Of a stretch of 64,000 nt of DNA, positions 3,952 through 57,441 are shown in pieces; position 1 is the stretch's first letter, and every line of letters starts with the position of its first letter. The notes below the pieces were generated by a model that saw only the letters and a list, made by a program, of their open reading frames with translations, was not told where the DNA came from and ran no database searches. The position numbers were made by a program, and so were the translations under genes. Where the stretch lies: contig JBAYIR010000002.1 in assembly GCA_041665505.1 (NCBI GenBank), forward strand, positions 11,602-75,601. The letters are read 5' to 3'. This DNA comes from Patescibacteria group bacterium. Lineage in GTDB: Bacteria; Patescibacteriota; Patescibacteriia; UBA1558; GWA2-36-10.

Positions 3952-3986
3952 TATTAAAAAATTAATCATTAAAGAGAATAAAATAT

Positions 3987-4385
3987 ATGAATAGAGTAGT
4001 ACACTTTGAAATACAAGTTGAAAATCCCGCTAGAGCTATCAAGTTTTATCAAGAGATTTTTGGCTGGGATTTCCAAAAATGGGACGGTGGTGATACTGAT
4101 TATTGGATGGTTTTGACCGCTAGCTCAGATAGCAAAGAGCCCGGTATAAATGGAGGCTTACTAAAGCGTCCTGGGCAAATGCCAACTAAAATGTCTGGTG
4201 CTAATGCTTTTGTCTGTACAGTTCAGGTAGATAATTTTGACGCCACAGCTGAAAAAATAGCTTTGGCTGGCGGTCTAGTGGCTATGCCCAAAATGGCGCT
4301 AGTCGGTATGGCTTGGCAAGGTTATTTTATAGATACTGAAGGCAATGTTTTTGGTGTACATCAGCCAGATACAAATGCCAAATAA
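3987..4385 (+). CDS. VOC family protein (glyoxalase-like)
   Basis: 132 aa; N-terminal VHFEIQVENPARAIKFYQEIFGW is typical of VOC/glyoxalase-I-like proteins. Confidence 0.7.
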   Translation: MNRVVHFEIQVENPARAIKFYQEIFGWDFQKWDGGDTDYWMVLTASSDSKEPGINGGLLKRPGQMPTKMSGANAFVCTVQVDNFDATAEKIALAGGLVAMPKMALVGMAWQGYFIDTEGNVFGVHQPDTNAK

Positions 4386-5361: not shown

Positions 5362-5877
5362 ATGGGAAACTTTAATAGAGACAGAGGTGGAGACCGACGC
5401 GGTGGCGGTGGAGGTTTTAATAGAGACAGAGGTGGAGACCGACGCGGTGGCGGTGGAGGTTTTAATAGAGACAGAGGTGATAGACCAACTATGCACAAAG
5501 CTATTTGTGATGCTTGTAAACAAAGTTGTGAAGTCCCATTTAAACCAAGTGGTGATAAACCAATATATTGCAGCGACTGTTTTAGCAAACAAGGTGGTGG
5601 CAGTGATAGACCAAGATTTGGTGGTGGCGACAGAGACAGAAGACCACGCTTTGAAGATAAAAGCGCCGGACCTAGAGATTCAGATTCCAAAGATATTTTA
5701 AAAGGTGTTAAAACCTTAAATTACAAGCTGGATGAACTGATAAAAATACTAGGTTCACAAAATACTAGAGTTTCAATAGAAACTACTAATGAAGAAGCAG
5801 CTCCTACTAAAAAAGAAGCTAAGAAAAAAGCTAGCCCCAAGAAAGTAGTCAAGAAAAAAGCTAGCAAAAAGAAATAA
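5362..5877 (+). CDS. CxxC-x17-CxxC zinc-ribbon protein with RGG/RG-rich N-terminus and lysine-rich C-terminal tail
   Basis: CDAC-(17 residues)-CSDC counted directly from the translation; N-terminal FNRDRGGDRRGGGGG repeats; C-terminal KKKASPKKVVKKKASKKK. Confidence 0.7.
   Translation: MGNFNRDRGGDRRGGGGGFNRDRGGDRRGGGGGFNRDRGDRPTMHKAICDACKQSCEVPFKPSGDKPIYCSDCFSKQGGGSDRPRFGGGDRDRRPRFEDKSAGPRDSDSKDILKGVKTLNYKLDELIKILGSQNTRVSIETTNEEAAPTKKEAKKKASPKKVVKKKASKKK
5371..5481 (+). repeat. Perfect 45-nt tandem repeat (about 2.5 copies) inside the CxxC gene
   Basis: The unit TTTAATAGAGACAGAGGTGGAGACCGACGCGGTGGCGGTGGAGGT is repeated exactly; it encodes the FNRDRGGDRRGGGGG units. Confidence 0.9.
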
Positions 5878-21713: not shown

Positions 21714-23135
21714 TTAATAATCCCTTAATTTTCTCATATCTTCGTGTTTTTTGATGCGCTCCAAAGCTTTAGCTTCAATTTGTCTAATACGCTCACGGGT
21801 CACTCCAAATTCTTGTCCTACTTCTTCCAAAGTGTGAGCTACACCATCACTTAGACCAAATCTCATTTCCAATATTTTTTGTTCACGTGGGGTCAAATCA
21901 CCAATTATCTTACGCACATGGTCTCCCAAAAGTTTTAAAGCAGCTACCCTATCTGGACCAATATTTTTCTCATCTTCAATAAAATCTCCTAAGGTGCTAT
22001 CTTCATCGTCATCACCGACTGAGGCTTCTAGCGATACTGTCTCTTGGGAAATTTTTATAATCTGTCTAATCTTATCAATATCTTCACCCATCTCAGCGGC
22101 AATTTCTTCTGGCAATGGATCACGACCAAGCTCTTGAACCAAACGACGCTCAATCTGATTGAAACGATTGATAGTCTCTACCATATGAACTGGAATACGA
22201 ATGGTTCTAGATTGATCAGCCAAAGCCCGAGTAATAGCCTGACGAATCCACCAAGTAGCATAAGTAGAAAACTTGTAACCTTTGCGATAATCAAATTTCT
22301 CTACGGCTCGAAACAAACCAATATTTCCTTCTTGAATAAGATCTAGTAAAGTCAAAGAGCGACCAGTAAATTTTTTGGCAATAGACACTACCAAACGAAG
22401 GTTGGCTTCGATTAATTTTTTCTTGGCTTCCAACTCTCCTTTTTCTTTACGCTTGGCCAAGGCCATTTCTTCTTCCGAATTGAGTAGCGACACTTTACCA
22501 ATTTCTCGCAAATACATTTGTATAGAGTCAGCGGCAATATCAGTCAAGTCACCTCTTTTGGTATCACTACCTACTCCAGATTTTGATAGTAAGGCTGAGT
22601 TATCTGTGGCCATATCCAAAATATTGCCTTCTGTCACCACCACTTGAATAGCTAAATCTTCCAATTTATCTAGCAACTCTTCTAATTGAGGAACATAATC
22701 TTCTAAATTATTAAAAACACGCAAGACCTCATTTTCGGTAATAAAACTACGAGAATGAGCCTTCTTAATCAAAAGCGCCACCGCTGCTTCATCTAATTTA
22801 GATTTAGCGGCTTTGATTTTGGCTGGATTTTTTTCTCGCAAACGGGACCCCGCTACGCGTGGGTTAACTACTGACTTTTCACCTACTAGCTTCTTGCTAT
22901 GGTGAACTACTTTGACAGCCTTTTTGGCTGGATTTTTTTTCAGTGTTGTTTTGGTGCCAGTGACCTTCTTAGAAGGATGGACTGATTTTGAAACAACAGC
23001 TTTACGTACCTTACTAGGTTTGTTGGCACTAGCTTTTTGACTAGTGTTTTTTTCCCGCGCACGGGATCCCGCTACGCGTGGATTGACTAGCTTAGTGCTA
23101 ATCTTTTTTTTAGTTGTAGTTTTTTTGACAGGCAT
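21714..23135 (-). CDS. rpoD: RNA polymerase sigma-70 factor RpoD with a lysine-rich N-terminal extension
   Basis: Regions 2-4 are conserved ([13 protein letters not shown]; C-terminal [23 protein letters not shown]); lies immediately downstream of dnaG. Confidence 0.9.
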
Positions 23136-23137
23136 GT

Positions 23138-24928
23138 TTAGCTCTGTAATTTAAAAGCCTCTTTATTAATTAAATTTATTTTGTGAGATAACTCGTCTTG
23201 TTTTTGATGGTCATCAGACATTTCAGCTTGCCTTAGCTTATCTATCAAGTCTTGTCTTTGCAGATCTAATGACGCTTTTTTGAGCCTAAAAATCAAATTT
23301 TGGAAGTCACTGGCAATATCTATTTCTTTGGCTTCATGATAATCCTTTTCTCCAAACATAGATAGCCTAATCCATGTTTCCTTTTCTTCTAGGCTCAATT
23401 GCTCAAAATCACCAAATTTTTCCAAATTCTGATGCTTAGTATAATAAATAATCACTTTTTTGTAAAGGTCTTGAAGACCTTCCACTATCATGTCTGGATC
23501 AAGCTCTGAAATCAGTTTGTCTAAATATTGATTTTTATAAAAAGCAATAGTCAGTATCATTTCTGATAAAAGAGTAGCTGAATCTTTTTTATCTTGAACT
23601 ATTTTCTGAACAGCGATGTCTTGTTTTTCTAGAAAAGAGGTTGTCCCTTCTAAATCTTTTTTTAATATCTCAAAAGGTACTTGTAATTTATCAGACAATA
23701 TCTTCAAATAATGTACTTGTTCTATTTCTGTTTTTAAATATTTGATAATTGGTAATAATTTTTGAACGGCAATTTTTTTGTGATCCGCTCTATTTATATC
23801 GATAGCCTGAAATATTCTTTTAAAATAATAATCCATCACTGGTATAGAATCTTTGATAAATTGTAGCCACTGATCTGGATTATCTTTGATGATATCAGCT
23901 GGGTCTTTGCCTTTGGGTAAAACCAATATTTTGACATTCATGTCTTCTTGCCAACATAAGGCAATAGATCTAAAAGAAGCACGAGAGCCAGCGGCATCAC
24001 CATCAAAAGCTAATATCATATTATTGGCGTAGCGCTTGATTAGTTTGATATGCTCAATAGTCAAAGCTGTACCTGACACTGCTATAGTATTTTTGGCGCT
24101 AGTCTGATGGGCAGAAATAACATCCATATTGCCTTCTACTACAATCAAATATTTCTTTTTGCGCATTAGCTCTTTAGCTAAGTGCCAACCGTATAATATC
24201 TTACTCTTATCATAAATCAAAGTCTGTGGACTATTTATATATTTGCCACCTTGTTCTTCTTCATCATAGACAATACCCGCTAAAGAGCGCGAAGTAAAAG
24301 CTACTACTCTACCCTGAGTATCAGAAATAGGAAACATCAAACGTTTTCTAAAACGATCCACATAGCCACTACCATCTTTTTTCTTGACTGTTAAGCCCGC
24401 TTTAAAAATATCTTCTTGGCTATATTTAGCATCAACTAAATATTTAAACAAACTATCCCAAGACTCAGGTGAGAGCCCTAATTGCCAATTACTAATACTA
24501 TCGGCTTTGATTTGACGCTTGTCTAGATAGGCCAAAGTCTTTTGGCTAGCTGGGCTATTTTCTTCTAAAATAGTATGAAAAAATTCAGCCGCCGCTTTGT
24601 TGATAGCATATAATTTGCTATTGTCTTCTTTTTTGGAACTGCTAAAACCAGTTAAAACTACATTGGCTTTTTCCGCTAAAATACGAATAGCTTCTTTAAA
24701 TTCTATGCCTTCATATTGTTCAACAAAACTAATCAAATCACCGCCCTTATCACAGCCAAAACAATGCCAAATCTGCTTTTCACGAGAAACCATAAAACTA
24801 GGCGTTTTTTCATTATGAAATGGGCAAACAGCCTTAAAATTACCACTAGATTGTTGGAGGTTTATATAAGAAGATACTATATCCACAATATCAAGCCTAT
24901 TTTTTATTTCTTCCACTGGGTTCATCAT
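23138..24928 (-). CDS. dnaG: DNA primase DnaG
   Basis: CHC2 zinc finger ([11 protein letters not shown]...HCFGC) and TOPRIM ([16 protein letters not shown]). Confidence 0.9.
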
Positions 24929-28658: not shown

Positions 28659-29624
28659 TTATTTATAATTTTGTTTATATCTATTAATAAATTCTTTTAA
28701 AGTAAATTTGTGTGCTTGGGTACCTTGATGTTCCACTGCATAAGCCGCAATAGTACTAGCTAGCTGAGCTGACTTTTCTAAACTAGCTCCTGAGACTAGT
28801 CCTTTTATCAGTCCAGCCCGATAAGCATCGCCAGCCCCTGTGGGATCTATCACTTTTTTGACCTTAGTAGCTTTAATATCTATCCGCCCGTCTTTAGAAT
28901 GTATCTCTGAACCATCAGCTCCTTTGGTAATTACCAAAATGTCTACTAATTTTTCCAATTTATCATGCCCTAGATTTAATTTATCTAAAATTAATTTTAT
29001 CTCATAGTCATTACCAATCAGTATTTTAGAGCCTTTTATCACTTGTCGCAACTCAGAGGCGGTAAAAGAAGTAATCTGCTGACCTGGATCAAAAATATAA
29101 TCTAAACCCATTTCTTTATACAGCCTGATATAGGCTATCATCCGTGGTTTAAAATCAGGTGAAACAATAGCTAGAGCTGGATTTTTTATTTTTCTGACTA
29201 ATGAGCAATATTCAACATCCATTGGTCCTGGATAAAAGCCAGATATTTGATTATCTGCTTTATCAGTCATGATATAAGCTGAAGCAGTGGCTTCTTTTTT
29301 GGATTGTTTGACCAAAGAAAAATCAATTTTATTTTTCTTAAGCCACTGACCATAGCGAGTAAAATCATGTCCAACCAAACCAAGTAAAACTGCCGGCTCT
29401 TTGAGCAAAGCTAGATTATAAGCAATATTTCCAGCCGTGCCACCAAAACTTTCATCAGTTCTTTCTAAAGTAAAACTGACATTTAAAATATGAGTTTGAT
29501 CTGGCAAAATATGATCTGAAAACAAACCAGGAAAATCCATGATTCGGTCATAGACAATAGAGCCAGAAACTAATATTTTTTTATCCCGCGGACGGGATCC
29601 CGCTTTATGGTGATTATTTGTCAT
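28659..29624 (-). CDS. PfkB-family carbohydrate/nucleoside kinase (possibly adenosine kinase, given the ahcY neighbour)
   Basis: C-terminal [17 protein letters not shown] (the GAGD anion-hole motif of the ribokinase family); the N-terminus carries the in-frame GC-rich AGSRPRDKK element. Confidence 0.7.
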
Positions 29625-31074: not shown

Positions 31075-34000
31075 TTAACCTTCTATTTCTGTTATGTATT
31101 GCCCATAAATCCAGCCACTGATTTTATCATCGACTATAACCTTATACCAATTATAGCTATCATCAGCCACACTCTGTTTTTCTACAGCCTCAAATTTATC
31201 ACCACTATTCACTTGCGTCAAGATTTTAGCACTCTTACTGGGATTTTCTCGTAGATTCAACCAACCAGTTGGCGTATCTTTAACGATCAAATAAATAACT
31301 ACTACCTCCTCCACTCCTGTACTAGTGGCAGTACTAGAACTATTTCCTCCATCAGAAAATGATAAATCAATTAACTCATTATCTATATTCCCCGAAATAA
31401 CAAAATCATCAACTGCTTCATTAGTGACTAAATCGTTGACATTAGTAACTATAGCTTTATTATCGCTAGTAGCTATTATTTTATTTTTCAAAATCATTAT
31501 TTGTGACCTTAACAGATAAGCACTAAAGACTGCCAATATAATAATTAAGACTAACCAAACTATCTTACGATTTATTTTCTGCCAAATAAATTTGGTAAAA
31601 TTAACGTTTATTTTTTCTTCTATAGCTTCTATAGCTAATTTACTCACTTTCTTTTTAGCTCTAGTAGATTTTTTTGCTTTTGCCCCACTAGAAGCTACCA
31701 GTGGTTTTGGTTCGCCGGCAATAACTGCCATATTGCTCTGCAAAGCTAACTGACCATTGGCAATATTTATCTGATGTCGCCACATGGAGAAAAGTATAGT
31801 GACTAGTAGTGCGAAGCCAGTGACAAAAGCAATGATTATACCCCAAACTGAAACTGCTTGCATACCACCAAAGGCACCCAAAAATCCTTGAGAAGCATCA
31901 GCTTGTGTAACCAAAGCTTTTAATTCTTCTAAATCTTTGTTGACGGCACTTAAACTTTCTTTGTTCTCCCGATAAGTCATTATTTTATCTTGAGGCGAGG
32001 CAGTATTTTCTTTTTGGGTACGCAAAATCTTTTCTACTCTTTCATCAACGTCATTTTTTAGTAAAAGAGCTTGGGAAGAATATTGATTTTTTTGTAATTT
32101 TTTATAAAAATCACCAGCTTGAGCTTGAGCTAAACTCAAATCATTTTCCGCTATGAGCCAAATGTCACGCATCTTGATAAATTTTTTGACTGACTCACCT
32201 GGTTTAAGTTCAATTTCACCACTAGCAAATAATGTGTCCAATTGAATATCATACTGTATATTGAAACCGCCATCATCTATAATATGCTCAGTCTTGGCCT
32301 CTTTTGGTAAATAAATCTTAAACGGCACTTTTTGGGTAATTAAAGCTGGATTGGATATCATGATATTTAAATCGACTGATCCTGATGTATACCAAGTACT
32401 GACTATTGGTGAAGCAGTCTCTTGCACTACTTGTCTTTGGACATTAGCGACAGTTTTAAAATCAGCTATCTTATTACGGACATATTTGACATCATCCATA
32501 TTTTCTCTAGATACTGATAAAATGGTGTCTAAGGTATCATTATCTAGCCGTCCCAATTTTGTATTAATACTACTTATGGAACTAGAAATAGTACCCATAG
32601 CACTAAACATTTCTTCTGGCTTAAGATTATAAACATTAGTATGATTAGTAGTGCTACTGCCTGAGCCGACTTCAATATCATTAATACTTGTTTCTAAACT
32701 AGCAATACTAGCTTCAATATTATCTAATTGCGTTTTAATCAAAGCAATATCTTCCTTAATTAAAGTTACATCATCTTTTATACCAGCTACGTCTGATTGA
32801 ATGGTGTTTATTTTAGTGACTGGTACAGCTAGCTGTTTTAATATTGTAAAAGCATCACCGTTATTTGGCGCAAAAGGCAAATCTGGTTCTAGAATAATAG
32901 CTTTGGTCGTACCATTATAATCATCTATCCGCCTAGCCACTCCGCTATTTTGACCAGAAGTAAATGTCAATAAGGCATGAGTATACAAATCATCAACTGT
33001 ACTGGCTAAGTTACTTCCTAATAATGAAAGCGTGGAGGCAATCTCAGCTGTACTGACAGTAGATCGTATAGCAATCAAATCATCCGATAATAAATCAATT
33101 GTATTTTGTAAGGTGCTAATACCACTACTCAATGTCGTCTCAGTAGATTGTAAATTTGAAAGAGTGGCTAATGATCCACTATCCAAATTGGCACCTGATA
33201 AATAGCGTCCACTATAAGCCCAAACTGAGGCAGCATCTAAAGTAGCCGCATTTGAAGTTTGTGCTAAAATTGTAAAAGTATCAGCATCAGTCGGAGCTAA
33301 AGATAAAGCTGGATCAACTGTAATAGCCTTGGTCGTACCATTGTAAGCAGTGATACGTCTGACTTGGCCAACATTCATACCCGAGGTAAATAATAAAATA
33401 TTATTTTTATAAAAATCATTAGTAGCATTGGTCAGAGCAGTAGCAAAAACTGTAGTAGAAGGAGATAAATCAGCCACTGCCGTCTCCGCTACAATCAAAG
33501 CACTAATAATTTTGTCTAATTTAGCACTATTAGCACTAATAGCATTAGATAAAACTGTTTCCGTGGCTTGAATGTCTGATAAAGTAGCTAGTGACCCAGT
33601 GTCCAAAGTAGCTCCTGATAAATAACGGCTACCATAAGACCAAATAGCCGCTGCATCCACTGCTGAATTAGCTGTTTGGGCTAAAATAGTAAAGGTATCG
33701 GCATTGCTTGGAGCACTAGCTAAGGCTGGCGAAACAGTGATTTGTTTATTGGATCCAACATAGTCTGTAATACGACGAGCCTGGCCTGCATTAACGCCAG
33801 AAGTAAAGACTAAAACTCCATTGTTATAAAAATCATTAGAAGTACTAGTTAGAGTAGTAATAAATTGTGTATCACTTGCACCAGCATCATTAACAGCTTT
33901 TTGAGCAACAATTAAATTATTTATCAAAGTATCCAGCTGAGCACTCAAAGTAGTTTCAGTGCTTTCGATGTCTGATAAAGTAGCTAGTGACCCAGTGTCC

Positions 34001-37000
34001 AAAGTAGCTCCCGATAAATAACGACTACCATAAGACCAAATAGCTGCTGGATCTAAAGAAGCATTAGCCGTAGCTGCTAAAATTGTAAAAGTATCACCAT
34101 TAGCTGGCGCGGAATTTAAAGCTGGGTTGAGTGTTAGTTGTTTGGTAGCCCCAACATAATCAGTAATACGTCTGACTTGACCCGCATTAGCACCAGAGGT
34201 AAAGACTAAAACTCCATCATTATAAAAATCATCACTAGCACTAGCTAAAGTACTAATAAATTGAGTATTAGAAGCTCCAACATCATTGACCGCTTTTTCA
34301 GCAATAATTAAAGTAGCTATAAATTGATCTAAAGTGGCTTGTAAAGCCGCTAGATCACTAGCTGAGGCGCGAGAAGAAATAGTAACGTCAATATTAGTTT
34401 TTAATAAGGTGCCAATACTATCAACAGCTGTTATAGAAGTAAGTAGTGTATCCCATACCCTCTGAGCTGTCACATCACCGGCTGTCAACTCACGACTAGA
34501 ATAAGCCCAAACCGAAGCCGCTAAAGATGCTAGACCGTCATTTTCAATATCAGTAATTGTCCTAGTGGCTGCTGACCAGACATCAGTGGCTGTCAAATTA
34601 CTAATACCACGTGAAGATATAGTAGCATCTAAATTATCAGCTATTAATTTACCGATTGACCCATTTTGTGACAAGAGAGCTGAAGCTACATCCCATACTT
34701 GTGTCGGATCATCTAAGCTTACTCCTCCGGTCAAAGTGCGGACACCATATTCCCAAACTTGTTGGGCTGACAGGTTATTTAAAGCGGCAATAGCTTCATA
34801 ATTTTGTTGAATGCGTCCAAATAAAGTATCAGCACTGGATAAATCAGAAGGTGAACCCACTAAGGTTTCTAGGGTATCAACGTAACCCTCCATCTGATCA
34901 ACATAAGCTAATACTGACTGTAAATCTTGATAAGCTGAAGTCGATTGTCCATTGTAGCCTAATTCTGTTTGGACAGAATTTATCTTATTATAGGCGTCAT
35001 CAGCTTTGTTGAAAATAGCATCAGCTGTTTGAGTACCCCATTTTTCTTGTAAAAATTTACTGCGGCCAAACAAAGTATTGGCACTGGATAAATCTGTATG
35101 TTCACCAATTCTAGTCTGGACAGTAGTCAAAGACGAAATAATATCAGCCGCACTATAGGCTCCCCAATTAGCCACAATATCATCTACTTGAGTTCTAATA
35201 TATTGAGTATCTGTATAAATATCATCCACCTTAGCCTTTATATAAGTCACATCAGCTTGCAAGGTGGCAATCTCCGCACTAGTGGCCAGTGCTCCACCGC
35301 CTGACAAAGTAGCACTAGTCAGTTTTCTATCTACATATTCCCAGACTGCTTGAGCAATTTCTGCAGCTGAAGCTCCACCACCACTAGAGCTGACGTTGGA
35401 ATATTGGCTTAATACCACGAACTCATCATTAAAAGCTGGGGCAAATGGTAAAGCTGCATCTACTGTAATGGCTTTAGTAGTACCATTATAACTAGAAATA
35501 CGACGAGAAATACCAGCATTTTGACCAGACATCATAACCACAGTTTGATTCTGATAAAAGTTTGATGTCGCTTCAGTCAAATCAGTCACAAAAGTAGTAG
35601 CTGTAGCTGCCACATCGCTGACTAAACCTCTTTTGACAGCCAAACGATCATTGAGCAACTGACCAAAAGATCCATCAATATCAGCAAATGAACCAACTTG
35701 AGCTCCCCAAATACTAGAAGCTGTGAGTCCTGTAGACAACCAAGGTGAGACTGGCTGACCAGAAGAGAAAAAGTCTAGAGTACCAGTATCTACTGTGCCT
35801 GACAAAACAGAAACGTCATCTAAATAAACAAAAGGTCGTCTGAAAAGCTGATAGTCACCAGCAGTAGCATTGACCATGGTCGTGCTCTTTAAATGTGGTG
35901 CTACTATACCTTTTAAAAATAATATAGTTGGCGTATTTTTTACTACCTCAAAAATACGACCGTAAGTATCTTTAAATAAATAGCCAACCCATTGATTGGG
36001 TGTCCAAGATTTATCTACATCTTCCACCCATGGTGGTAAATAATTACCTAATGGATTAAATATCACTTCACTACTACCCTCATCTTCCACTACAAAAGAT
36101 GACTGCGCGGATATAGTCAAATCTGCCAAAGCAGATTCTGTTGGTGTACCAGAAACTACAAACTGTTGCCATTCATTAGCTGTGTCGGCAGCAGTCCAAG
36201 TCAAATTAGCACCAGTCATACCAAGACCTGACAAAGTAACTGTTGGTAAATTACTGGATCCATAATAACTATTAACTCGAATATAGCCCGTGACCGCTAG
36301 TGGCTCATTGGCCACACCAATAACTTTGGCTGAATATTCCAAAGGCACATCTGCACTTTGCGACTCCATACGCCAAGCATAACCACCAGGTGTATGCACG
36401 GTAGTGTCAATTAGACCAGCACCAGTAGTACGCATATTACCAAAAGTACTTTGATTGACTATATCTCTGGTACTACTAGAATAATTCATACGAATATCAG
36501 TACCTGGTATAGTACTAGCCATATAAGTATCCCCCAAACGAGACATATTATTATAATCTTGGGTGCCAAAAAATACTGGGCTCAAAATCTGCGTATCCAC
36601 ACCAGTAAACTGTAATAATGATTCTGCTTCAAAAGTTACAGTATTTGGTGGCATACTAATATCTGCTTCATTCCACATACCACGTCCAAAAATACTACCA
36701 TTATCAGTCACTGATACAGAAGAATAAGAAGGATGCGAACGGATACCTGAACCATATTCAGCACCAACTGTCACTGAACCATCAGAAACATGCCCATCAA
36801 AGGTATTATCAGACATATTAACAAAAGCATTACCATGCAAACGAATACCATTGGTATTTAAAGAAAATTTATTATCATTAATAGTGACCTTGGCAACGCC
36901 GACACCAAAGTTTAGTGCTCCAGATGTTCCAGCACCAGTCACACCATTATTATAAAATTCAGAATTAGCTACAGTATATAAACGACCAGACACAAAGGTC

Positions 37001-40000
37001 GCCGCACCACCGGCTGCTGCTGGCGGGGCAGTTACATAGGCATTACGATGACCCATGAAAATACTACCGTCAATACCAACATTTTGACTAGTAAAAGCGT
37101 TATAACCAGCGCCAATATTGGCTGCTCCCACATGAGTAGTCACAAAGTAAGCACCAACCATATTTGAGCCCTGAGTTTTAGCTATGACAGTATAAGCTCT
37201 GTCAAAATAGTTATAAAAAACTGATTTAGAAATTGTCTGTGTTGGGTATGGTGTTACCGAGGTATAAGGATTAGTAGTCACAGCAAAATTATTATACTGA
37301 TTTTCCATTGACAGATGATTCAAATTCATACTGGCTAGCCCGGCTAGACCCACTGCTGATACACCAAAACCAATTCCTTGATTTACCATATTAGCTGCTG
37401 CCAAAGTTGCACCAGTGTAAGAAATATCTTCATCTGACCAAATATGCGTACTGCGCTTGAGATTCAAAACTGGTGAATAAGTCGGACTAGAGCTGGAATC
37501 CCTAGCTGCTTTATGATGATAAGTAAAATTGTGTGACCAACCAGCTAAAGTGGCCGCTGTTCCATTTTCCTCATGACCAGAACCATATTTGATACGAGCC
37601 GAAGGAGTATATTTTTCTCCAGTATTATCTACCCAAACACGAGTGCGCTCTGGATAAGTAATTACCCTAATTCTTTCATTACCAGTATCAGCACCATTGG
37701 TAAAAATCATATTAGGACTACCCCAGGCATAATCAGCCCAAACCCAACCCTCTTGGGGATTCATAGCGCTGTCAAAACTAGCTCGATAAATATTTGTGCC
37801 AATACTGGAGCCACAACCAGCTGTTGCTCCTCCAGTCCAAATAGTTGCCGGTACTGTAAAATTACCAAAATTACAAGCATCAGAAGTATCTACTTCATAA
37901 TCAAAAATATTAAACTCATCAATCGCTCCATCAAAAGCGCCATTGTACTGCCAATTATTACCAAGTCTAATTAAACCAGCATTAGCACCACGGGCCGCTA
38001 AAGTCGTACCTTGGTTAGTTTCAAAAGCTACACCATCAAGCCAAGCTCGTTTAAAAGCCGTGGCTGTTTCTCGCCAAGCTACCCGTAAATGATGCCACTC
38101 GCCAGCCGTAGCTGAGAAGGTCTGCTGTAAGACAGTGCCTTGTACTGCACCAGCATAAATAGCTACCTCTAATTTACCATTAGTATTATGTCTGACAAAC
38201 AAACGATCCGTATCACCTTGGTTAGCGTAGTCAAGTAAATATTGACCATAAGGACTAGTGGAAGTTGCCGGTGAACCAGTATAATTAGTTTTAAACCAAA
38301 GATCTATTGTGCCATGTTGCCTAGCTGTAGCTGTGCCACTCTGACCTTCTATATTATAACGAGTGGCAATCGGACTACCAGTTGTCGCCCAAGTAGGTGG
38401 CATTAAAACTGCACTACCCATACCATTGACGCCAGTCCAAGCGCCATTATTTCTCAAATAATTATTTTGTAAAAGCAACATCCGATCACCAAACTTGGTG
38501 GCTGTTGGGTTACCAGAGTTTATACGCAAAGAAATTTTACTATCTGGTGCAGTATAAGTTGTACCTGGTGTAGCTGTACCAGCTGCACCTGTGGTACTGC
38601 CTGTGACTGTATAATTACTATTAGTCGGGTTCCACTCAAAATCCCAAACTTCATATTTAGTATTAGCATCACTAGTTGTAATACCTATACTATTATCTAA
38701 ACCCTTATAGCTCTTAATAGCGGTAGAGCTAATATAAATTTTATCTCCCACTTCAGGTCTGACTGTGCCATTCCAACCACCTTTATGTTTAATAGTAAAA
38801 TTTAAATAAGAACTAGTGAAAGGCACACTGGGATAAGCATTACCTATTGGTCCAGCACTTGATCCAACTAAACGCCAATAATCAGCATCATCAAAATTAT
38901 CGGCCCAGCCATTACTAGCACTCATAGAATCAAAAATCGCTTTGGTGCCAGCACCACTGGTCGCTGATCCTACATAAACACCTGTTTTACCAGTGGTGTA
39001 AGTAGCATTAGTAGTTGTAAAATCCCAAGAGCCTGGTTCGCCAGAATTGCAATCAGTAGTAGCCCAAAATTTGACACTTAGTGCTGTGCCTGTTACATCA
39101 GCTTTTAGACAATACCAAGTACTATCACTAAAAGCTTTGGTGGTTGGTGTGCCAATTACCGTTGGTACACCAGCTAAAGTAGTATAAAGCCCTACCGTGT
39201 TGGCGGCATTGGTCTTAGTAATTAAAGCAGCATAGCCATTACCATCAATACTCTGTCTCATTAAAAATCCTAAGCGACGTGAAGTAGCATCAGCTGCCAT
39301 ATCCATATAAACTAAGCCCGAAACAGTATAGTCAGTCGTATCTACATTGGTATTTTGAATATTAAGATGAGTCAAGTTTGTCTCATTGATATTCATCTGA
39401 CCATCTTTGATATGCCAAACATAAGGAGCTGACGGCGGCACAATAGCAGCCGCAGAATATTTGTGAGTTTCTATCCAACCTGGTGAATTACCATATTCTA
39501 AAGTAAATGTTTCATTGGGATTATAGCTCAAGCCAGTGGTAATCTGTCCAAGCTTAGCTTCTTGACTACCTGAAGATACATTAAGTACCCCCGAATCAAT
39601 ACGCTCTAGACCACTCATACCAATGGGTGTATTTTGATTAACTGGCGAAGTGGTCCAAGAAGTAAAACCAGAAATTCGCACCCTCACCCAATAGGCATTA
39701 ACTCCATTGATAGTAGTTTTGGCTGGAGTGCCAGTCAAATCATAAGGCGTCCAACTTAAAATGCGACGTGGAGAATTACCATTTTCTGTGAAAAAATTAC
39801 TAGGATTAAATGATTTCCACTGTCCGCCATTGAGACGAGAAATCGTAGCTGACTGAGCTGTAGTATAGTCAGCCGTCACTGGCTCCGTAAAAGTAATAAC
39901 ACCCGCAGCGACCGCACTAATACGCCTATAGATTGGGCTAGAATCATTATCATCTATCATTACTACTTGATCAACGCCAAAGTTGGCTTGATTACCAGAT

Positions 40001-43000
40001 GTCACTGACACAGTATAAGAATTTCTAGTGGTGTTGGCAGATAATGGTACGCTATGTCCTGTACGTGTTTGATATTTATAAGCATCACGCGGTGTAAAAC
40101 TAGTCCAACCAGCCCCATTATAAAACTCCCAAGTGAATAGTGCTGAGGAGTTCATCAGCGTACCCAGATTTGCTTCCAAAGAATACATCATGTTGGTACC
40201 TTGATCACCAAAATATATAGCATCGTTTAACTCAGTATTAGCTCCATCACCAAATAAAGTCCAAGTAGTAGAACTAGCATAATTTGCCGAATACAATGGT
40301 GAACCACCATTGTAATCAGCATTATAAACATTAGTGACTGGTATAGTGCCAATTTCTGCTGTCTCAGTATTTGGTGTTGGCAAAGCATTACGACCCAAGC
40401 CGGCCAGGCCAGTCCAAACTGGGAATTGATTAATATCATCAGTGCCACCCATTCTGACAGAAGACAAATTATTATCTACTACTTGATTGGTAGCACCAGC
40501 TACTGTGATATTATCTAGTGGCTGCCAATTACCCACTACATTGTCTTTGACATCCACCCAAGTAGCTCCAGCATCAGTGGAATTATTACCCAAATAGCCA
40601 GTATCAATATTACCGTCAATATCAACAGCCAAGTCACTTTTCATAGTGCGAAAATCATCACTACCTTGACCATACAGATTGACCCTACCAGTTCTATTGT
40701 TATCTTGCGTGCCGGCATTAGTACCAGTTAGTCCTGTCATAGTATATACTCCTGCTCGCCTATCTGTACCAGTTGGTAATTCTGTCTGTGGACCCTTGGC
40801 AGCATAGGCACCTTGAGCCACTGTATAGCCAGTCACCAAAGCAGCTGTCAAAGTAATAACCGTAGAACTCTCCACTGCTGCTACAATCCTAGTAGTAGCC
40901 ACTGAGTCATTATCATCAATTATGATTGTGTCTCCTGGAGCAAAATTACTAGTGGAAGCTACAGTCAGAGTGACAGTAGCTGGCGAGTCAATAGTTAAAA
41001 GTGAAGAAGCAGCTGGTGAAACATTATCAAAATAAATATCCGCATGTGTAGAAGCTGGTAGTGGATCAGTACTATCACCAAAAGCCAAAGTAGCATCAGA
41101 ATCCAAAACAATTTTACCAGGAATAGTGATACGATAATGTTGATTAGCTGTGTCAGCAATAGTCAATTTTGAACCCGGTGTCACAAGAGCTGATACCCAA
41201 CCACCATTATAAGAATAAGCAGCAAAATTACCTCTAGTTCCAGCACCATCGCCAATAGCTGCACCATAATTACCAGTATAAGCTAGAGCCGCATCCCAAG
41301 AGCGATCAATACTGACTACATGTTGGGCTTTGTTGAGCCAGACATAATCATTGGTCAAATTTGTCGAATCAGCTGTATCAGAATTATTAGCCCCATTACC
41401 AACTATCACAATATCACCATCAGCTGGAGCATCAGTATTGGCATCACCATAAGCTACAAAGAAAATATGTCTATTAGATAAAAAAGGATAATTAGTTAGT
41501 GAGGTTGCTACAGCTTGACTCTTGGCATAAGCCAAAACCACTGAGGTAGTACGAGCTAATTGCGAATTTAAGCCAATTGGATTTTGGGTAAAATTATAAG
41601 AAGTAAAACGCAAAACATCACCATCGCTTGGTGTTCCAACATTAGATAGGTTAGCTGAAATCTCAGCTATTCTAGCCCCCTCAGCCACAGTAAAAGCAGT
41701 AGTTAAATTGGCTGCTAAAATAATAGATGGACCACTGGAAGGACAAGCTCCATCAGAAGCGTTGGTGCTGGCAATACGATGTGTCACAATTGGTGCTGTA
41801 TTATTGTCCCAAATCTGGACACTAGCTGCTGTACCAACTGCTGCTGAAAAACCGTCAATACTAGCTACACAAACACGAGTAGAGACAGCTGAATCAGCAG
41901 TCAAAGTAGTAATAGCACCTTGGACTATTCTATTTTTCCAGATAGCCTGAGCAACTGTGGCATTTTTGCTAGTAGTAAAACCAGTTGTAGTCGCGGCCGT
42001 TGTGACAATAGCTGGACCATTGCTGCAACTAGCATGAGAGTTGGTCACTGAAGCTACGGTCAAAGCCACTGTAGCTGTATCAGCATCCCATAAATTAATA
42101 GTTTGATTAATAGAAAAACCACTAGTTGAAGCTACACATAAAACAGTGCTAGCAGTAGAATCAAGAGTCAGAGTAGTCAAAGGTACACCATCATTAACCC
42201 AAGCAGCGCCCGTGCCACCAGTGGTGGGTGTAGTTAATTTATTTGTTTGCGTACCAGAGACAGTACCGGCTAAAGTCCAATTAGAATTACTAGAAGAATA
42301 AGTAGCTGTCCAATGCTCATTTTGTGTCCTTCTAACCGTTGGTAAACCCACACCAGCAGCTGAATTGGCAGCGACCATAGCAGCCGCTGTCAAGCCATTA
42401 TGTGCAGCTAAAACTTTTGGCATAGTAATAGTTGGTGCATTGACCAAGTCTATATCATTAGCACCAATAGTTCTTATTGTACCATTTACTGTCGGAAAAT
42501 CTCCATAAGGTGCATTAGCTGCCCAAGTACCAAATACTGGTGTACCAGCACCCATATTAATTATTCTAATACCATAATGGGCACCAGAGGTGACTGCTAA
42601 CTCTGGATCAAAACGAAAATCAAAAGTACCACGACCATATTGACCAGGCGCTAGATTTTCACCAGACAAACCCTTATTAAACTGTATAGCTGCTCTTCTC
42701 AAAACAACAGTATCACTCGGATAGGTATAAGCACCTTGGGTGCCAGAGACATAGTTAGAACAAGAAGTAGTACAAGTTGCTGTTGGAAAGCTCAAAAGCT
42801 CGGCTACAATATCCACATTGGATAAAGAAGTGATAGTTAAATTTTCTAAAATCAACTGTACACCACGTAAATTACCACTAGCGCTAGGCTTAAAACCAAT
42901 AAATTGAGCGGCCGCATAAGTAGCGGTTGCACCAACTGCCACATGACCCAAAGCCAAAGCTCCAGCCGCACCATCAGTCACCGATGGTCCGGGATGAATA

Positions 43001-43926
43001 GGATTAAAAGTACCGGCCTCGGCATCACCATTTACACCATCACCAGAATAAGCCATAGCTGTATACCAAGAGCCGTTAGTGGATAGAGTAGTAGTACCAG
43101 CTGATACCTTGACCGCTCCTGTAAAAGTAGCGGCATAAGCTGGTGTATCATTTTTAAATAACCAATTAAATAAAGGTGTAAAAGAAGTAATACCTAAGGT
43201 ACTAACAATTATAGAAAAAACCAGCCAAGAGGCCATAGTCCGACGTAAAAGTATTTGTCTTGGCTCTCTTAATAGCTGTTTAAAGTCCGCCAAATTGAGC
43301 ACTGGTTGCATAGCCAATCTAGCTTGTCTATTTTTTGGTATTATTTTTTTCTCATAATAATCTGGCACAAAACGAACTAAAGGTTTTACTATCCATAATA
43401 AAAATAATTTGAATTCGCCTAGTCTGATTTTAAAATTATTTTTAAACTCTGCCCGATGGTCTAAAAGATAGCTGGCTCTTGGTCCAAAAAATCCCAAAAA
43501 TTTAACAAAAAATAAACTTATCCCGTACCAAGTAATTTTTAATAACAAAAATAAAAATAAATAAAGCCCTTTAAATATAGAAAAAACTCCTAGGGCAATA
43601 TTTTTTACTAAAAAACGTAATGATATTTCTACAATTGGCAATTTAGTTTTAACCAAACGGCTAAAATCATTAACTCTTGGCCAAAAATCACGCTTCAGAA
43701 AAGATGAAACTCTAGGTAAAAGCCACTTAAAGAATAAAAATAAATTTTTACCAATAAAAACAAGGCTAATAAATAATATATAGCCTATAAGTACTAAAGC
43801 TGAGGTGATTATTTTGGCCAACCAGACTAAAAAATAAACAAATAACTCTAATAATATCAGCGCCTTTTTAGTAGTTTGTTTACCATGACGCCTAAATTGC
43901 CAAACCGGCCAAGAATGTTTTTTCAT
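31075..43926 (-). CDS. Giant (4283-aa) membrane-anchored surface protein with LamG/ConA-like domain, repeated ~135-aa modules, coiled-coil region, two C-proximal TM segments and a C-terminal SH3b domain
   Basis: Single uninterrupted ORF. The N-terminal ~250 aa are polytopic. The product is Thr/Ser/Ala/Gly-rich. A LamG-like block is present (…WHHLRVAWRE…NGAFDGAIDEFNIF). Four to five FTSGxNAGQxRRIxDYxG modules are seen. The C-terminal SH3b-like block reads GWLNLRENPSKSAKILTQVNSGDKFEAV…YNWYKV. Confidence 0.8.
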   Translation of the reverse strand: MKKHSWPVWQFRRHGKQTTKKALILLELFVYFLVWLAKIITSALVLIGYILFISLVFIGKNLFLFFKWLLPRVSSFLKRDFWPRVNDFSRLVKTKLPIVEISLRFLVKNIALGVFSIFKGLYLFLFLLLKITWYGISLFFVKFLGFFGPRASYLLDHRAEFKNNFKIRLGEFKLFLLWIVKPLVRFVPDYYEKKIIPKNRQARLAMQPVLNLADFKQLLREPRQILLRRTMASWLVFSIIVSTLGITSFTPLFNWLFKNDTPAYAATFTGAVKVSAGTTTLSTNGSWYTAMAYSGDGVNGDAEAGTFNPIHPGPSVTDGAAGALALGHVAVGATATYAAAQFIGFKPSASGNLRGVQLILENLTITSLSNVDIVAELLSFPTATCTTSCSNYVSGTQGAYTYPSDTVVLRRAAIQFNKGLSGENLAPGQYGRGTFDFRFDPELAVTSGAHYGIRIINMGAGTPVFGTWAANAPYGDFPTVNGTIRTIGANDIDLVNAPTITMPKVLAAHNGLTAAAMVAANSAAGVGLPTVRRTQNEHWTATYSSSNSNWTLAGTVSGTQTNKLTTPTTGGTGAAWVNDGVPLTTLTLDSTASTVLCVASTSGFSINQTINLWDADTATVALTVASVTNSHASCSNGPAIVTTAATTTGFTTSKNATVAQAIWKNRIVQGAITTLTADSAVSTRVCVASIDGFSAAVGTAASVQIWDNNTAPIVTHRIASTNASDGACPSSGPSIILAANLTTAFTVAEGARIAEISANLSNVGTPSDGDVLRFTSYNFTQNPIGLNSQLARTTSVVLAYAKSQAVATSLTNYPFLSNRHIFFVAYGDANTDAPADGDIVIVGNGANNSDTADSTNLTNDYVWLNKAQHVVSIDRSWDAALAYTGNYGAAIGDGAGTRGNFAAYSYNGGWVSALVTPGSKLTIADTANQHYRITIPGKIVLDSDATLAFGDSTDPLPASTHADIYFDNVSPAASSLLTIDSPATVTLTVASTSNFAPGDTIIIDDNDSVATTRIVAAVESSTVITLTAALVTGYTVAQGAYAAKGPQTELPTGTDRRAGVYTMTGLTGTNAGTQDNNRTGRVNLYGQGSDDFRTMKSDLAVDIDGNIDTGYLGNNSTDAGATWVDVKDNVVGNWQPLDNITVAGATNQVVDNNLSSVRMGGTDDINQFPVWTGLAGLGRNALPTPNTETAEIGTIPVTNVYNADYNGGSPLYSANYASSTTWTLFGDGANTELNDAIYFGDQGTNMMYSLEANLGTLMNSSALFTWEFYNGAGWTSFTPRDAYKYQTRTGHSVPLSANTTRNSYTVSVTSGNQANFGVDQVVMIDDNDSSPIYRRISAVAAGVITFTEPVTADYTTAQSATISRLNGGQWKSFNPSNFFTENGNSPRRILSWTPYDLTGTPAKTTINGVNAYWVRVRISGFTSWTTSPVNQNTPIGMSGLERIDSGVLNVSSGSQEAKLGQITTGLSYNPNETFTLEYGNSPGWIETHKYSAAAIVPPSAPYVWHIKDGQMNINETNLTHLNIQNTNVDTTDYTVSGLVYMDMAADATSRRLGFLMRQSIDGNGYAALITKTNAANTVGLYTTLAGVPTVIGTPTTKAFSDSTWYCLKADVTGTALSVKFWATTDCNSGEPGSWDFTTTNATYTTGKTGVYVGSATSGAGTKAIFDSMSASNGWADNFDDADYWRLVGSSAGPIGNAYPSVPFTSSYLNFTIKHKGGWNGTVRPEVGDKIYISSTAIKSYKGLDNSIGITTSDANTKYEVWDFEWNPTNSNYTVTGSTTGAAGTATPGTTYTAPDSKISLRINSGNPTATKFGDRMLLLQNNYLRNNGAWTGVNGMGSAVLMPPTWATTGSPIATRYNIEGQSGTATARQHGTIDLWFKTNYTGSPATSTSPYGQYLLDYANQGDTDRLFVRHNTNGKLEVAIYAGAVQGTVLQQTFSATAGEWHHLRVAWRETATAFKRAWLDGVAFETNQGTTLAARGANAGLIRLGNNWQYNGAFDGAIDEFNIFDYEVDTSDACNFGNFTVPATIWTGGATAGCGSSIGTNIYRASFDSAMNPQEGWVWADYAWGSPNMIFTNGADTGNERIRVITYPERTRVWVDNTGEKYTPSARIKYGSGHEENGTAATLAGWSHNFTYHHKAARDSSSSPTYSPVLNLKRSTHIWSDEDISYTGATLAAANMVNQGIGFGVSAVGLAGLASMNLNHLSMENQYNNFAVTTNPYTSVTPYPTQTISKSVFYNYFDRAYTVIAKTQGSNMVGAYFVTTHVGAANIGAGYNAFTSQNVGIDGSIFMGHRNAYVTAPPAAAGGAATFVSGRLYTVANSEFYNNGVTGAGTSGALNFGVGVAKVTINDNKFSLNTNGIRLHGNAFVNMSDNTFDGHVSDGSVTVGAEYGSGIRSHPSYSSVSVTDNGSIFGRGMWNEADISMPPNTVTFEAESLLQFTGVDTQILSPVFFGTQDYNNMSRLGDTYMASTIPGTDIRMNYSSSTRDIVNQSTFGNMRTTGAGLIDTTVHTPGGYAWRMESQSADVPLEYSAKVIGVANEPLAVTGYIRVNSYYGSSNLPTVTLSGLGMTGANLTWTAADTANEWQQFVVSGTPTESALADLTISAQSSFVVEDEGSSEVIFNPLGNYLPPWVEDVDKSWTPNQWVGYLFKDTYGRIFEVVKNTPTILFLKGIVAPHLKSTTMVNATAGDYQLFRRPFVYLDDVSVLSGTVDTGTLDFFSSGQPVSPWLSTGLTASSIWGAQVGSFADIDGSFGQLLNDRLAVKRGLVSDVAATATTFVTDLTEATSNFYQNQTVVMMSGQNAGISRRISSYNGTTKAITVDAALPFAPAFNDEFVVLSQYSNVSSSGGGASAAEIAQAVWEYVDRKLTSATLSGGGALATSAEIATLQADVTYIKAKVDDIYTDTQYIRTQVDDIVANWGAYSAADIISSLTTVQTRIGEHTDLSSANTLFGRSKFLQEKWGTQTADAIFNKADDAYNKINSVQTELGYNGQSTSAYQDLQSVLAYVDQMEGYVDTLETLVGSPSDLSSADTLFGRIQQNYEAIAALNNLSAQQVWEYGVRTLTGGVSLDDPTQVWDVASALLSQNGSIGKLIADNLDATISSRGISNLTATDVWSAATRTITDIENDGLASLAASVWAYSSRELTAGDVTAQRVWDTLLTSITAVDSIGTLLKTNIDVTISSRASASDLAALQATLDQFIATLIIAEKAVNDVGASNTQFISTLASASDDFYNDGVLVFTSGANAGQVRRITDYVGATKQLTLNPALNSAPANGDTFTILAATANASLDPAAIWSYGSRYLSGATLDTGSLATLSDIESTETTLSAQLDTLINNLIVAQKAVNDAGASDTQFITTLTSTSNDFYNNGVLVFTSGVNAGQARRITDYVGSNKQITVSPALASAPSNADTFTILAQTANSAVDAAAIWSYGSRYLSGATLDTGSLATLSDIQATETVLSNAISANSAKLDKIISALIVAETAVADLSPSTTVFATALTNATNDFYKNNILLFTSGMNVGQVRRITAYNGTTKAITVDPALSLAPTDADTFTILAQTSNAATLDAASVWAYSGRYLSGANLDSGSLATLSNLQSTETTLSSGISTLQNTIDLLSDDLIAIRSTVSTAEIASTLSLLGSNLASTVDDLYTHALLTFTSGQNSGVARRIDDYNGTTKAIILEPDLPFAPNNGDAFTILKQLAVPVTKINTIQSDVAGIKDDVTLIKEDIALIKTQLDNIEASIASLETSINDIEVGSGSSTTNHTNVYNLKPEEMFSAMGTISSSISSINTKLGRLDNDTLDTILSVSRENMDDVKYVRNKIADFKTVANVQRQVVQETASPIVSTWYTSGSVDLNIMISNPALITQKVPFKIYLPKEAKTEHIIDDGGFNIQYDIQLDTLFASGEIELKPGESVKKFIKMRDIWLIAENDLSLAQAQAGDFYKKLQKNQYSSQALLLKNDVDERVEKILRTQKENTASPQDKIMTYRENKESLSAVNKDLEELKALVTQADASQGFLGAFGGMQAVSVWGIIIAFVTGFALLVTILFSMWRHQINIANGQLALQSNMAVIAGEPKPLVASSGAKAKKSTRAKKKVSKLAIEAIEEKINVNFTKFIWQKINRKIVWLVLIIILAVFSAYLLRSQIMILKNKIIATSDNKAIVTNVNDLVTNEAVDDFVISGNIDNELIDLSFSDGGNSSSTATSTGVEEVVVIYLIVKDTPTGWLNLRENPSKSAKILTQVNSGDKFEAVEKQSVADDSYNWYKVIVDDKISGWIYGQYITEIEG
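32700..34700 (-). repeat. Internal tandem repeat array (about 4-5 units of ~410 nt) inside the giant gene
   Basis: Near-identical DNA blocks are visible (e.g. AGTGACCCAGTGTCCAAAGTAGCTCC[CT]GATAAATAAC recurs at ~33590 and ~33995); protein units are ~135 aa each. Confidence 0.55.
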
Positions 43927-57046: not shown

Positions 57047-57091
57047 TTTTATAGCGACCGGCATCTCGCCGAAGCCTCTGGCGAAGGCGGA

Positions 57092-57181: not shown

Positions 57182-57441
57182 ATTTAAAAAAAATGCTACT
57201 AAACTAAGTGTATTAACTACTCTGTCTGCCTGTGGTAGCTAGAGTAAGAAGGGGCCACCCCCGCAGAGCAGGATGCCGCCTGTGGCGGCATCTGCGAAGC
57301 TTTCAAATACGAACTCTATTATAAATTTTATTGCCCCATTAGTCAATATACAAAATACTTGATCTAAATATTAAACCCCTGTTTGACTAAACAAAGTGAC
57401 ACAAGGTAAAATAGACTATATTAATTATATAATATATAAAT

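Follow-up and report, generated by a model that had tools for sequence, protein, structure and literature searches.

A GC-rich repeat in rpoD and a third copy in a kinase gene

The rpoD gene of a Patescibacteria group bacterium (assembly GCA_041665505.1, contig JBAYIR010000002.1) carries two GC-rich segments, similar to each other, within a lysine-rich N-terminal extension, raising the question of whether they represent a duplicated peptide motif or DNA inserted from elsewhere. We analysed the 64,000-nt stretch containing this gene (positions 11,602 to 75,601 of the contig, hereafter the window). The explanation that we consider best, with a probability of about 0.8, is that both segments are copies of a 30-nt non-autonomous selfish palindromic mini-element, similar to REPs (repetitive extragenic palindromes) and the Rickettsia palindromic elements (RPE), which would have inserted in many unrelated Patescibacteria genes. 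The peptide that it adds to RpoD would be a passenger, and this VNPRVAGSR-type peptide is very probably not a functional motif. The analysis established that the element is a discrete unit, that its sites are encountered both empty and filled, that it occupies several hosts and reading frames and that its lengths are compatible with translation.

A repeat search of the window returned two 43-nt segments, at positions 22828-22870 and 23047-23089, that are 219 nt apart and 86% identical, with a GC content of 0.70-0.73 against a window average of ~0.34. A 20-nt core pattern matched at these two sites alone, with 0.00 matches expected in shuffled sequence. The host gene (21714-23135, minus strand) lies downstream of dnaG in a dnaG-rpoD operon and encodes a 473-aa RpoD with Sigma70 r1_2, r2, r3 and r4 domains (Pfam); its disordered, A-run-rich extension corresponds to residues 1-111 (22803-23135, minus strand). 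Both segments are in frame in this open reading frame (ORF) and translate to VNPRVAGSR(A/L)REKN at residues 17-30 and 90-103. The original prediction, made from the sequence alone, had reported two similar in-frame segments, and these are confirmed. It had also placed a palindromic core in both of them; the repeat itself stands, but the exact palindrome CGGGATCCCG is found in the upstream rpoD copy only, the other copy reading CGGGACCCCG on the plus strand.

The 30-nt core of the first copy (copy A, ATCCACGCGTAGCGGGATCCCGTGCGCGGG, 23054-23083, minus strand) encodes residues 18-27, (N)PRVAGSRAR(E), and scores 57.8 bits with a covariance model. It is directly followed on its 3' side by a run of seven A (23047-23053, minus strand). 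This run is a pre-existing flank and presumably the target: it is present at the empty sites of two relatives, L152 and L144, which read ...GTCA/AAAAAAACACTAGTC (the slash marks the junction), and therefore lies outside the insert. The core of the second copy (copy B, ACCCACGCGTAGCGGGGTCCCGTTTGCGAG, 22835-22864, minus strand) encodes residues 91-100, scores 57.4 bits and is also directly followed by an A7 run in the sequence (22828-22834, minus strand).

A scan of the window for GC-rich islands revealed ACGGGATCCCGC at position 29590, which is part of a third copy in the same frame as those in rpoD. This copy (29575-29619, minus strand) is located 6.5 kb from the rpoD copies and matches the 26-nt pattern GCGGGATCCCGTNCGCGGGAWAAAAA with 0 mismatches. 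Its 30-nt core ATCACCATAAAGCGGGATCCCGTCCGCGGG (29585-29614, minus strand, 58.7 bits) forms codons 4-13 of a gene encoding a 321-aa PfkB-family kinase (28659-29624, minus strand; Pfam), between MTNN and KKILV, and is followed by T and A7. It is missing from three syntenic PfkB orthologs (L145, L147 and L149), in which the flank AAAAAAATATTRGTTTCTGG is kept. With up to three mismatches, GCGGGATCCCGTNCGCGGGAWAAAAA occurs at exactly three places in the window, with 0 expected, and the covariance model assigned 57-59 bits to the three copies and 12 bits to the next-best match in the 64 kb. The codons common to all three copies are rare in the window (GCG 7%, TCC 6%, CGC 10% and CGG 4% of the codons for their respective amino acids); the likeness is therefore at the DNA level, as the original prediction had claimed.

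Empty and filled sites in related genomes

Comparison with related genomes delimits the insert. In strain L152, whose RpoD core is 100% identical, site A lacks exactly the 30 nt between identical flanks (ATAGTCA/AAAAAAACACTAGTC), and site B contains the second hairpin only (TCCCGTCCGCGGG) and is 21 nt shorter. A DNA alignment of site A gives AAGCTAGTCA[ATCCACGCGTAGCGGGATCCCGTGCGCGGG]AAAAAAACACTAGTC for the window and AAGGTAAGCA/AAAAAAACACTAGTC for L144. Copy A is missing from the orthologs L144 and L145, whose flanks can be aligned, and copy B is entirely missing from L144; once both cores are removed, the two RpoD junctions match those of insert-free relatives. The same situation is encountered in other genes. 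An exact 10-aa gap is observed opposite the element of the L018 RecG protein in 13 of 14 aligned orthologs (sampled, 64-82% identical), and a homolog of the HI0933-like protein of L017, encoded in the window, has a gap opposite the element. No target-site duplication is visible, filled and empty sites differing by exactly 30 nt, save for an ambiguous single A.

The ~120 closest RpoD orthologs, which their sources label as Patescibacteria, Parcubacteria or Komeilibacteria, each possess a lysine-rich extension, and the motif is missing from most of them. In L145, rpoD contains two copies, of 27 nt and 24 nt, at other A-runs. The window is empty at one of these sites: next to its unoccupied A-run site ..CTGAAAAAAAATCCAGCCAAAAAGG.. 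(22922-22941, minus strand), the junction CAGCCA/AAAAGGCTG is filled in L145 as CAGCCA[ATCACCCTGCGGGATCCCGTACACGGG]AAAAAAAGGCTGCC. The rpoD gene of L151 also has two copies, one of them diverged and at the position of site A, and eroded remnants were found in the rpoD genes of L149, L147 and L150 (ATTTTACGCGGTGATGGATCTCGCCAGCGTGAT, TCACGCCCTCAGACGCGTGA and a 15-nt half element). Runs of seven or more A number 5 in 345 nt of the extension versus 54 in 56 kb of sense ORF sequence, a ~15-fold enrichment, and residues 1-111 were modeled by AlphaFold without secondary structure, with a predicted local distance difference test (pLDDT) score of 37-45. The extension is thus both A-run-rich and insertion-tolerant, which would account for the two copies here and the further copies or remnants in orthologs.

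These comparisons bear on three points of the original prediction. It had favoured either the insertion of a DNA element, tolerated by a disordered part of the protein, or a nucleic-acid structure under selection over a simple peptide duplication. Insertion agrees with the exact 30-nt indel, the presence of copies in unrelated genes and in non-coding DNA, and the pLDDT of ~40. The comparison of rpoD orthologs that it called for returned insert-free genes or decaying GC-rich copies and no AT-rich recoding of the same peptide, and the search for additional copies produced the third window copy, missed earlier, as well as metagenome loci, together using all three frames. Both outcomes speak for the original prediction, which either could have refuted.

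Two public gene models (L151, 175-219, and NCBI MFA6466572.1, P0002) have the RpoD start inside or just past the element, with a truncated extension. Such inserts seem to mislead start-codon calling.

Distribution among genes, phages and insertion sequences

Metagenomes were scanned with the pattern GCGGGRTCCCGNNNNCGNGANAAAAA, in which 19 bases and the A-run were fixed, and 21 loci were retrieved on contigs of 28-52% GC. At least nine unrelated ORFs carry copies, all with lengths that are multiples of 3, and all three sense frames are in use (..AGSRxR[DE], ..SPQSGIPFAG and ITAKRDPVSG). Based on Pfam, the coding copies are hosted by the delta subunit of DNA polymerase III (HolA, L003), an IS110 transposase (L005, L012), a Mur ligase (L007), a SpoU methylase (L013, L014), a HI0933-like flavoprotein (L017) and RecG (L018), in addition to two unassigned N-termini (L011, with the copy at codon 6, and L019); a membrane protein is a further host. 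Other copies are mid-gene or at the 3' ends of genes. A non-coding copy is located 20 nt upstream of the start codon of a pilin gene, in the 5' untranslated region (5'UTR; L016).

In a phage contig (L128, with TerS, TerL and portal genes), the DNA that separates the terminase genes from the portal gene holds three copies in tandem. They alternate with an identical 14-nt repeat that is also present element-free, so that TTA[core]AGAAG can be compared with TTA/AGAAG. Among 120 matches of viral contigs to a loose pattern of the 5' half, this is the sole genuine element locus, the rest being mostly chance matches in GC-rich phages. In L005 (952-990) and L012, the copy is in frame and falls within the 16 terminal codons of a transposase gene of the IS110/IS116/IS902 type; the similarity between the two contigs extends past the element. 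An insertion sequence (IS) carrying the element could transfer it between genomes. IS110-family elements often target REP-like palindromes.

Searches in other collections were negative. Rfam has no match at the element, either for the window and 14 loci at the gathering threshold, where tRNAs only were returned, or for 22780-23140 at E≤10. Annotated phages and plasmids (blastn) gave 20-nt chance matches only, and IMG/VR viral contigs no match to the specific pattern. An rpoD-specific 20-mer had a single chance match among genome contigs, in a GC-rich Thermoanaerobaculia genome. In the protein database, the N-terminal 166 aa of RpoD had one match, to a lysine-rich extension from which the motif is absent, and there was no peptide family. 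We saw no account of such elements from Patescibacteria, either in Rfam or in the literature searched.

Structure, length and orientation of the element

An alignment of 21 copies yields the consensus ATCACCGCAAAGCGGGATCCCGTTTGCGGG, followed by N-AAAAA. The unit is 30 nt long, GC-rich and palindromic, with sharp ends and unrelated flanks, and its 5' arm (ATCACCGC, ATCCACGC or ATCCCGC) is conserved though it was outside the search pattern. It can form two adjacent hairpins on one strand, H1, AUC(a)CCGC-loop-GCGGGAU, and H2, CCCG-loop-CGGG. The alternative is a single long hairpin centred on GAUC within GGATCC; for the consensus, this is the fold of lowest computed energy (-15.2 kcal/mol, z = -3.5). 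The two-hairpin form has three observations in its favour: in H1, the change of U2 to C accompanies that of A17 to G in two independent copies (copy B of the window and L007); additional hairpins are present inside the H1 loop, of 18 nt in L019 and 36 nt in L014; and half-elements exist, in rpoD orthologs and at site B of L152. With the proposed partners, 87.8% of cells pair, versus 19-49% when the partners are slid. Copy B combines the U-A to C-G double change in hairpin 1 with a C/A mismatch in hairpin 2.

The coding copies and their derivatives measure 30, 30, 30, 27, 24, 15, 48 and 66 nt, all multiples of 3, while non-coding copies include lengths of ~32 and 33 nt (counted by hand). Stop codons in loop 2 (TTAG, TGAG) are confined to frames that are not in use. 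The constant multiple of 3 in coding copies fits read-through by translation, with ~10 extra residues as a result, and argues against excision. The downstream flank is purine-rich, with an A-run in all but the phage copies and AAAAAAA at all three window copies, and the element is in the sense orientation at all 11 independent coding sites.

Proposed mode of insertion and points against it

We propose that the AT-rich genomes of Patescibacteria received copies in a single orientation, each at the 5' edge of an A-run. We infer that the targeting of A-runs is strand-specific and that an enzyme encoded elsewhere mobilises the element in trans, perhaps as a folded single strand. Phages and IS elements probably carried the element between lineages, since copies are found in both. 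Because its length is divisible by three and no sense frame contains a stop, insertion into a gene would add ~10 residues. Such inserts would survive at tolerant places, i.e. termini, linkers and disordered lysine-rich tails, and the AAA codons of these tails would supply many A-runs. After insertion, copies would decay through GC-to-AT changes and in-frame deletions.

Several points weigh against this scenario. The conservation and the A-run preference of the metagenome set are partly due to the construction of the search pattern, which required the A-run, and the independent support for A-run targeting is therefore limited, being provided by the kinase copy and a second family of elements in RecG (see below), the rpoD copies adding little because their host region is itself A-run-rich. 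The same pattern fixed one arm per helix, and covariation is weak, with a compensatory change at one pair only. As A-runs are only about twofold commoner on the sense strand, the bias in orientation reaches marginal significance at best; by a hand estimate, the sense-only bias barely exceeds what the A-run asymmetry and one stop-containing antisense frame would give (p ~0.05). No transposase, Y1_Tnp included, was detected by Pfam in the 64-kb window. The copy number is low, with three copies in 64 kb, all intragenic, none in the 21-kb syntenic stretches of two relatives, and 0-2 copies per 10-21 kb in the relatives overall. In the absence of a target duplication, insertion and precise loss read alike in the sequence, and a precise deletion promoted by the hairpins is possible. 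That L151, which is more distant, has its diverged copy at site A can be read in two ways, as a hot spot of insertion or as an old insertion with later precise losses. Finally, five of the seven nucleotide differences between copies A and B are synonymous, which taken alone is also compatible with selection on the peptide.

Alternative explanations

The last point also speaks for a peptide-level repeat, in which a functional basic motif of the sigma N-terminal extension, contacting for example DNA or RNA polymerase, would have been duplicated and maintained by selection on the protein. The motif resembles its surroundings in being basic and, in the window as in the orthologs, all rpoD copies share one frame; this shared frame is explained by the AAA-AAA codon register of the host runs. 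Of the five synonymous differences, two correspond to the opposite sides of a single base pair of H1, and both copies share the same rare GC-rich codons. Moreover, other proteins read the element in other frames (LSPQSGIPFAG, ITAKRDPVSG), untranslated copies exist, and the motif's absence from most of the ~120 orthologs extends to L152, which has an identical RpoD core, lacks copy A and most of copy B and seems to be a naturally occurring, nearly insert-free RpoD allele. We thus regard a selected peptide as very improbable. A selected cis-acting structure in the 5' part of the rpoD and PfkB mRNAs, and in 5'UTRs elsewhere (an RNase site, a stabiliser, a translational brake or a protein-binding site), would account for the compensatory change in H1, the constant sense orientation and the proximity of several copies to translation starts (PfkB codon 4, L011 codon 6, the 5'UTRs of L016 and L128), and copy A with its flanks does fold stably (-20.6 kcal/mol, z = -3.1). 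However, copy B and the kinase copy fold no better than shuffled sequences (z = -0.3 to -0.8), other copies are mid-gene or 3', and the element is patchy even between near-identical strains and decays in orthologs. This explanation is unlikely as a general one; exaptation may have occurred at particular sites, but it cannot account for the distribution of the element.

The palindromes themselves could point to a sequence-specific enzyme, a restriction-modification system or a recombinase, of which the repeat would be the target or by-product, a link that the original prediction had suggested checking. The core does hold GGATCC, CCGCGG and ACGCGT, and GATC is rarer than expected in the window (111 versus ~180-204). 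GGATCC, in contrast, occurs at its expected frequency (7 versus 6-7), five of these occurrences having no element context, the conserved unit is 30 nt long with non-palindromic detail, and no restriction-modification or recombinase gene was found nearby in the window (Pfam); we give this possibility hardly any credit. A separate de novo origin at each site, by template switching or slippage in A-rich DNA and without common ancestry, seems still harder to defend. Template switching can make palindromes, and the inserts always abut homopolymer runs, but the same 30 nt, loops included, recur at more than 15 unrelated sites on contigs of 28-52% GC, and the flanks do not provide a template for the inserted sequence.

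Other assignments were tried and rejected. The peptide is not AT-hook-like: a GRP core is missing, and copies elsewhere are read in other frames. An intrinsic terminator does not fit, the hairpins being followed by an A-run and not a U-run, and the opposite strand having its T-run before the hairpins. A frameshift or slippage cassette would need an alternative ORF, and there is none. The copies are single and dispersed, unlike a CRISPR or TIGR-type array, the sole tandem array being that of L128, with its identical 14-nt inter-repeat units; the consistent GTTRRRY of an integron attC site is not found; and there is no match to a tRNA or rRNA fragment. Excision from the mRNA and ribosomal bypassing were dismissed since coding copies and deletion derivatives stay multiples of 3.

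Comparison with known palindromic elements

The closest parallel to a selfish mini-element of this type may be sought in the Rickettsia palindromic elements RPE-1 to RPE-8, reportedly described by Ogata and colleagues in 2000. Both are selfish palindromes of AT-rich genomes, reduced in the case of Rickettsia, which lie in frame in unrelated or essential genes, are translated at tolerant positions and also occur in non-coding DNA. The classic RPE-1 measures ~100-150 bp. The Patescibacteria element is set apart by its 30-nt length and by a host of another phylum, and it adjoins A-runs and forms a double hairpin. The Rickettsia elements are also referred to in work on REP sequences (PMC3733652) and elsewhere (PMC1779305).

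REP sequences are 20-40 bp GC-rich imperfect palindromes, often arranged as dimers, that fall into GTAG and CGTC families (Di Nocera et al. 2013, PMC3733652). Intragenic REPs are known from genes of replication and repair and from the N-termini of ORFs; they encode 20-30 residues there, and some ORFs have received two of them (PMC3733652). The present element is likewise a 20-40 bp GC-rich imperfect palindrome able to form stem-loops, with RpoD, RecG and HolA among its hosts. It has no terminal GTAG or CGTC tag, its ends being ATC(A)C in 5' and CGGG in 3', and the H1 loop of the two rpoD copies is the one place where GTAG occurs. REPs number hundreds per genome and are mostly extragenic, whereas we counted three copies in the 64 kb, all intragenic, and 0-2 per 10-21 kb in relatives, and most of the copies found were intragenic. 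REPs are also associated with a RAYT (HUH/Y1) transposase, and Pfam detects none in the 64-kb window.

Mitochondria provide another parallel with the double-hairpin elements (DHEs) of Allomyces (Paquin et al. 2000), the GC42/var1 clusters of yeast (PMC4478555) and the RHEs of sponges (PMC2800124). These are short GC-rich hairpins or double hairpins in very AT-rich genomes, with conserved stems and variable loops; their presence varies between strains, and they occasionally lie in coding or rRNA genes, from whose transcripts they are not removed (PMC4478555, PMC2800124). Our element shares with DHEs and GC clusters its small size, high GC content, two adjacent hairpins, dispersal in an AT-rich genome and strain polymorphism. 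The comparison is an analogy only, since those elements are organellar and GC42 is 42 nt long with an AG target, while ours is found in a bacterial chromosome, measures 30 nt and lies beside A-runs. The miniature inverted-repeat transposable elements of bacteria (MITEs), such as Correia/NEMIS and Nezha, are non-autonomous, can be located in ORFs or near genes and alter transcripts (reviewed in PMC10969869). The element is similarly small, non-autonomous and in or near genes, but MITEs are 50-500 bp long and have IS-derived terminal inverted repeats and a target-site duplication, neither of which is seen here. It is thus the same in kind as RPEs, intragenic REPs and mitochondrial GC-rich elements, and falls outside each family by the defining features.

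Further palindrome families

The RecG gene of L018 contains two more GC-rich hairpin inserts in the element-sense orientation (3956-3995 and 4155-4190), which encode 10-11 aa and are missing from orthologs. Of these, TCCGCCAGAGGCGGATCCGCCTCTGGCGGA is a perfect palindrome of 30 nt that comes after TTA and before A7 (-28.8 kcal/mol), with the architecture of the rpoD element and different stems; the other is GCTCGCCTCGCTGAAGCTACGGCGAAGCGGGC. This second family suggests the existence of a broader class.

Related observations were made at other loci. A palindrome family, GTCGAGCTnAGCTCGAT(GG), recurs in a 28%-GC lineage, at ~1764 in L013 and downstream of the element in both L013 and L014, and is present twice in frame in the SpoU gene of L014. 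RecG orthologs P0124, P0125, P0129, P0131, P0137 and P0140 have lineage-specific inserts of 6-18 aa in the same few loops (e.g. TTSRVSRPRGRK and SISRLPELSSVRSRQANQ), some of which, seen at the protein level only, may be further element families or remnants. In the window itself, a GC-rich hairpin, CCAUCCGCCUUCGCCAGAGGCUUCGGCGAGAUGCCGG, directly follows tRNA-Ser (57051-57091, minus strand) and shares ATCCGCC and GCCAGAGGC with the second family of the L018 RecG, of which it may be a non-coding relative.

We tentatively raise the idea, less probable than not in our judgement, that Patescibacteria harbour a superfamily of palindromic mobile elements of exactly 30 nt. Its several families would share ATCC...GGATCC...GG and insert strand-specifically at the 5' edges of A-runs, at lysine codons, in a manner unlike known transposition; they would spread on phages and IS elements and systematically decorate the proteins of these reduced genomes, essential ones such as RpoD, RecG and HolA among them, with 10-residue inserts. 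Such a superfamily would have no target duplication, terminal inverted repeats or linked transposase, and its members might move as a folded single strand or through an RNA intermediate primed on the T-run.

Other features of the window

A candidate small RNA was noticed at 57185-57320 (minus strand), where a perfect TTGACT-17 nt-TATAAT promoter precedes a GC-rich stretch of ~110 nt predicted to fold strongly (-43 kcal/mol). It contains GAUGCCGCC-ACA-GGCGGCAUC, ends in a U-run just upstream of tRNA-Ser(GGA) and has no Rfam match. At 5376-5464 (plus strand), a 44-nt GC-rich unit, TAGAGACAGAGGTGGAGACCGACGCGGTGGCGGTGGAGGTTTTA, is exactly duplicated in tandem within ORF 5362-5877, which encodes a treble-clef zinc-finger protein whose N-terminus is rich in Arg and Gly. 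A giant ORF of 4283 aa (31075-43926, minus strand) has Laminin_G_3 and SH3_3 matches and a GC content of 0.40-0.41, above that of the rest of the window. Over the whole window, the observed/expected ratio of the CG dinucleotide is 0.59, ~80% of the coding sequence is on the minus strand and the GC skew is steadily negative.

Significance

Selfish DNA inside protein-coding genes has been encountered in few settings, namely the RPEs of Rickettsia, some REPs and the GC clusters of mitochondria. The concept thus has precedents, and what deserves attention here is the host phylum, the very small and fixed size and the association with A-runs. With its constant size, its A-run flank and no target duplication, the element poses a small and tractable problem of DNA mobility. 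For those who work with these genomes, the inserts can mislead alignments, ortholog calls and gene-start annotation, and they could also act as strain-level markers. The occurrence of a 30-nt version in the housekeeping sigma factor and in replication and repair genes of Patescibacteria suggests one source for some of the short lineage-specific inserts of their proteins.

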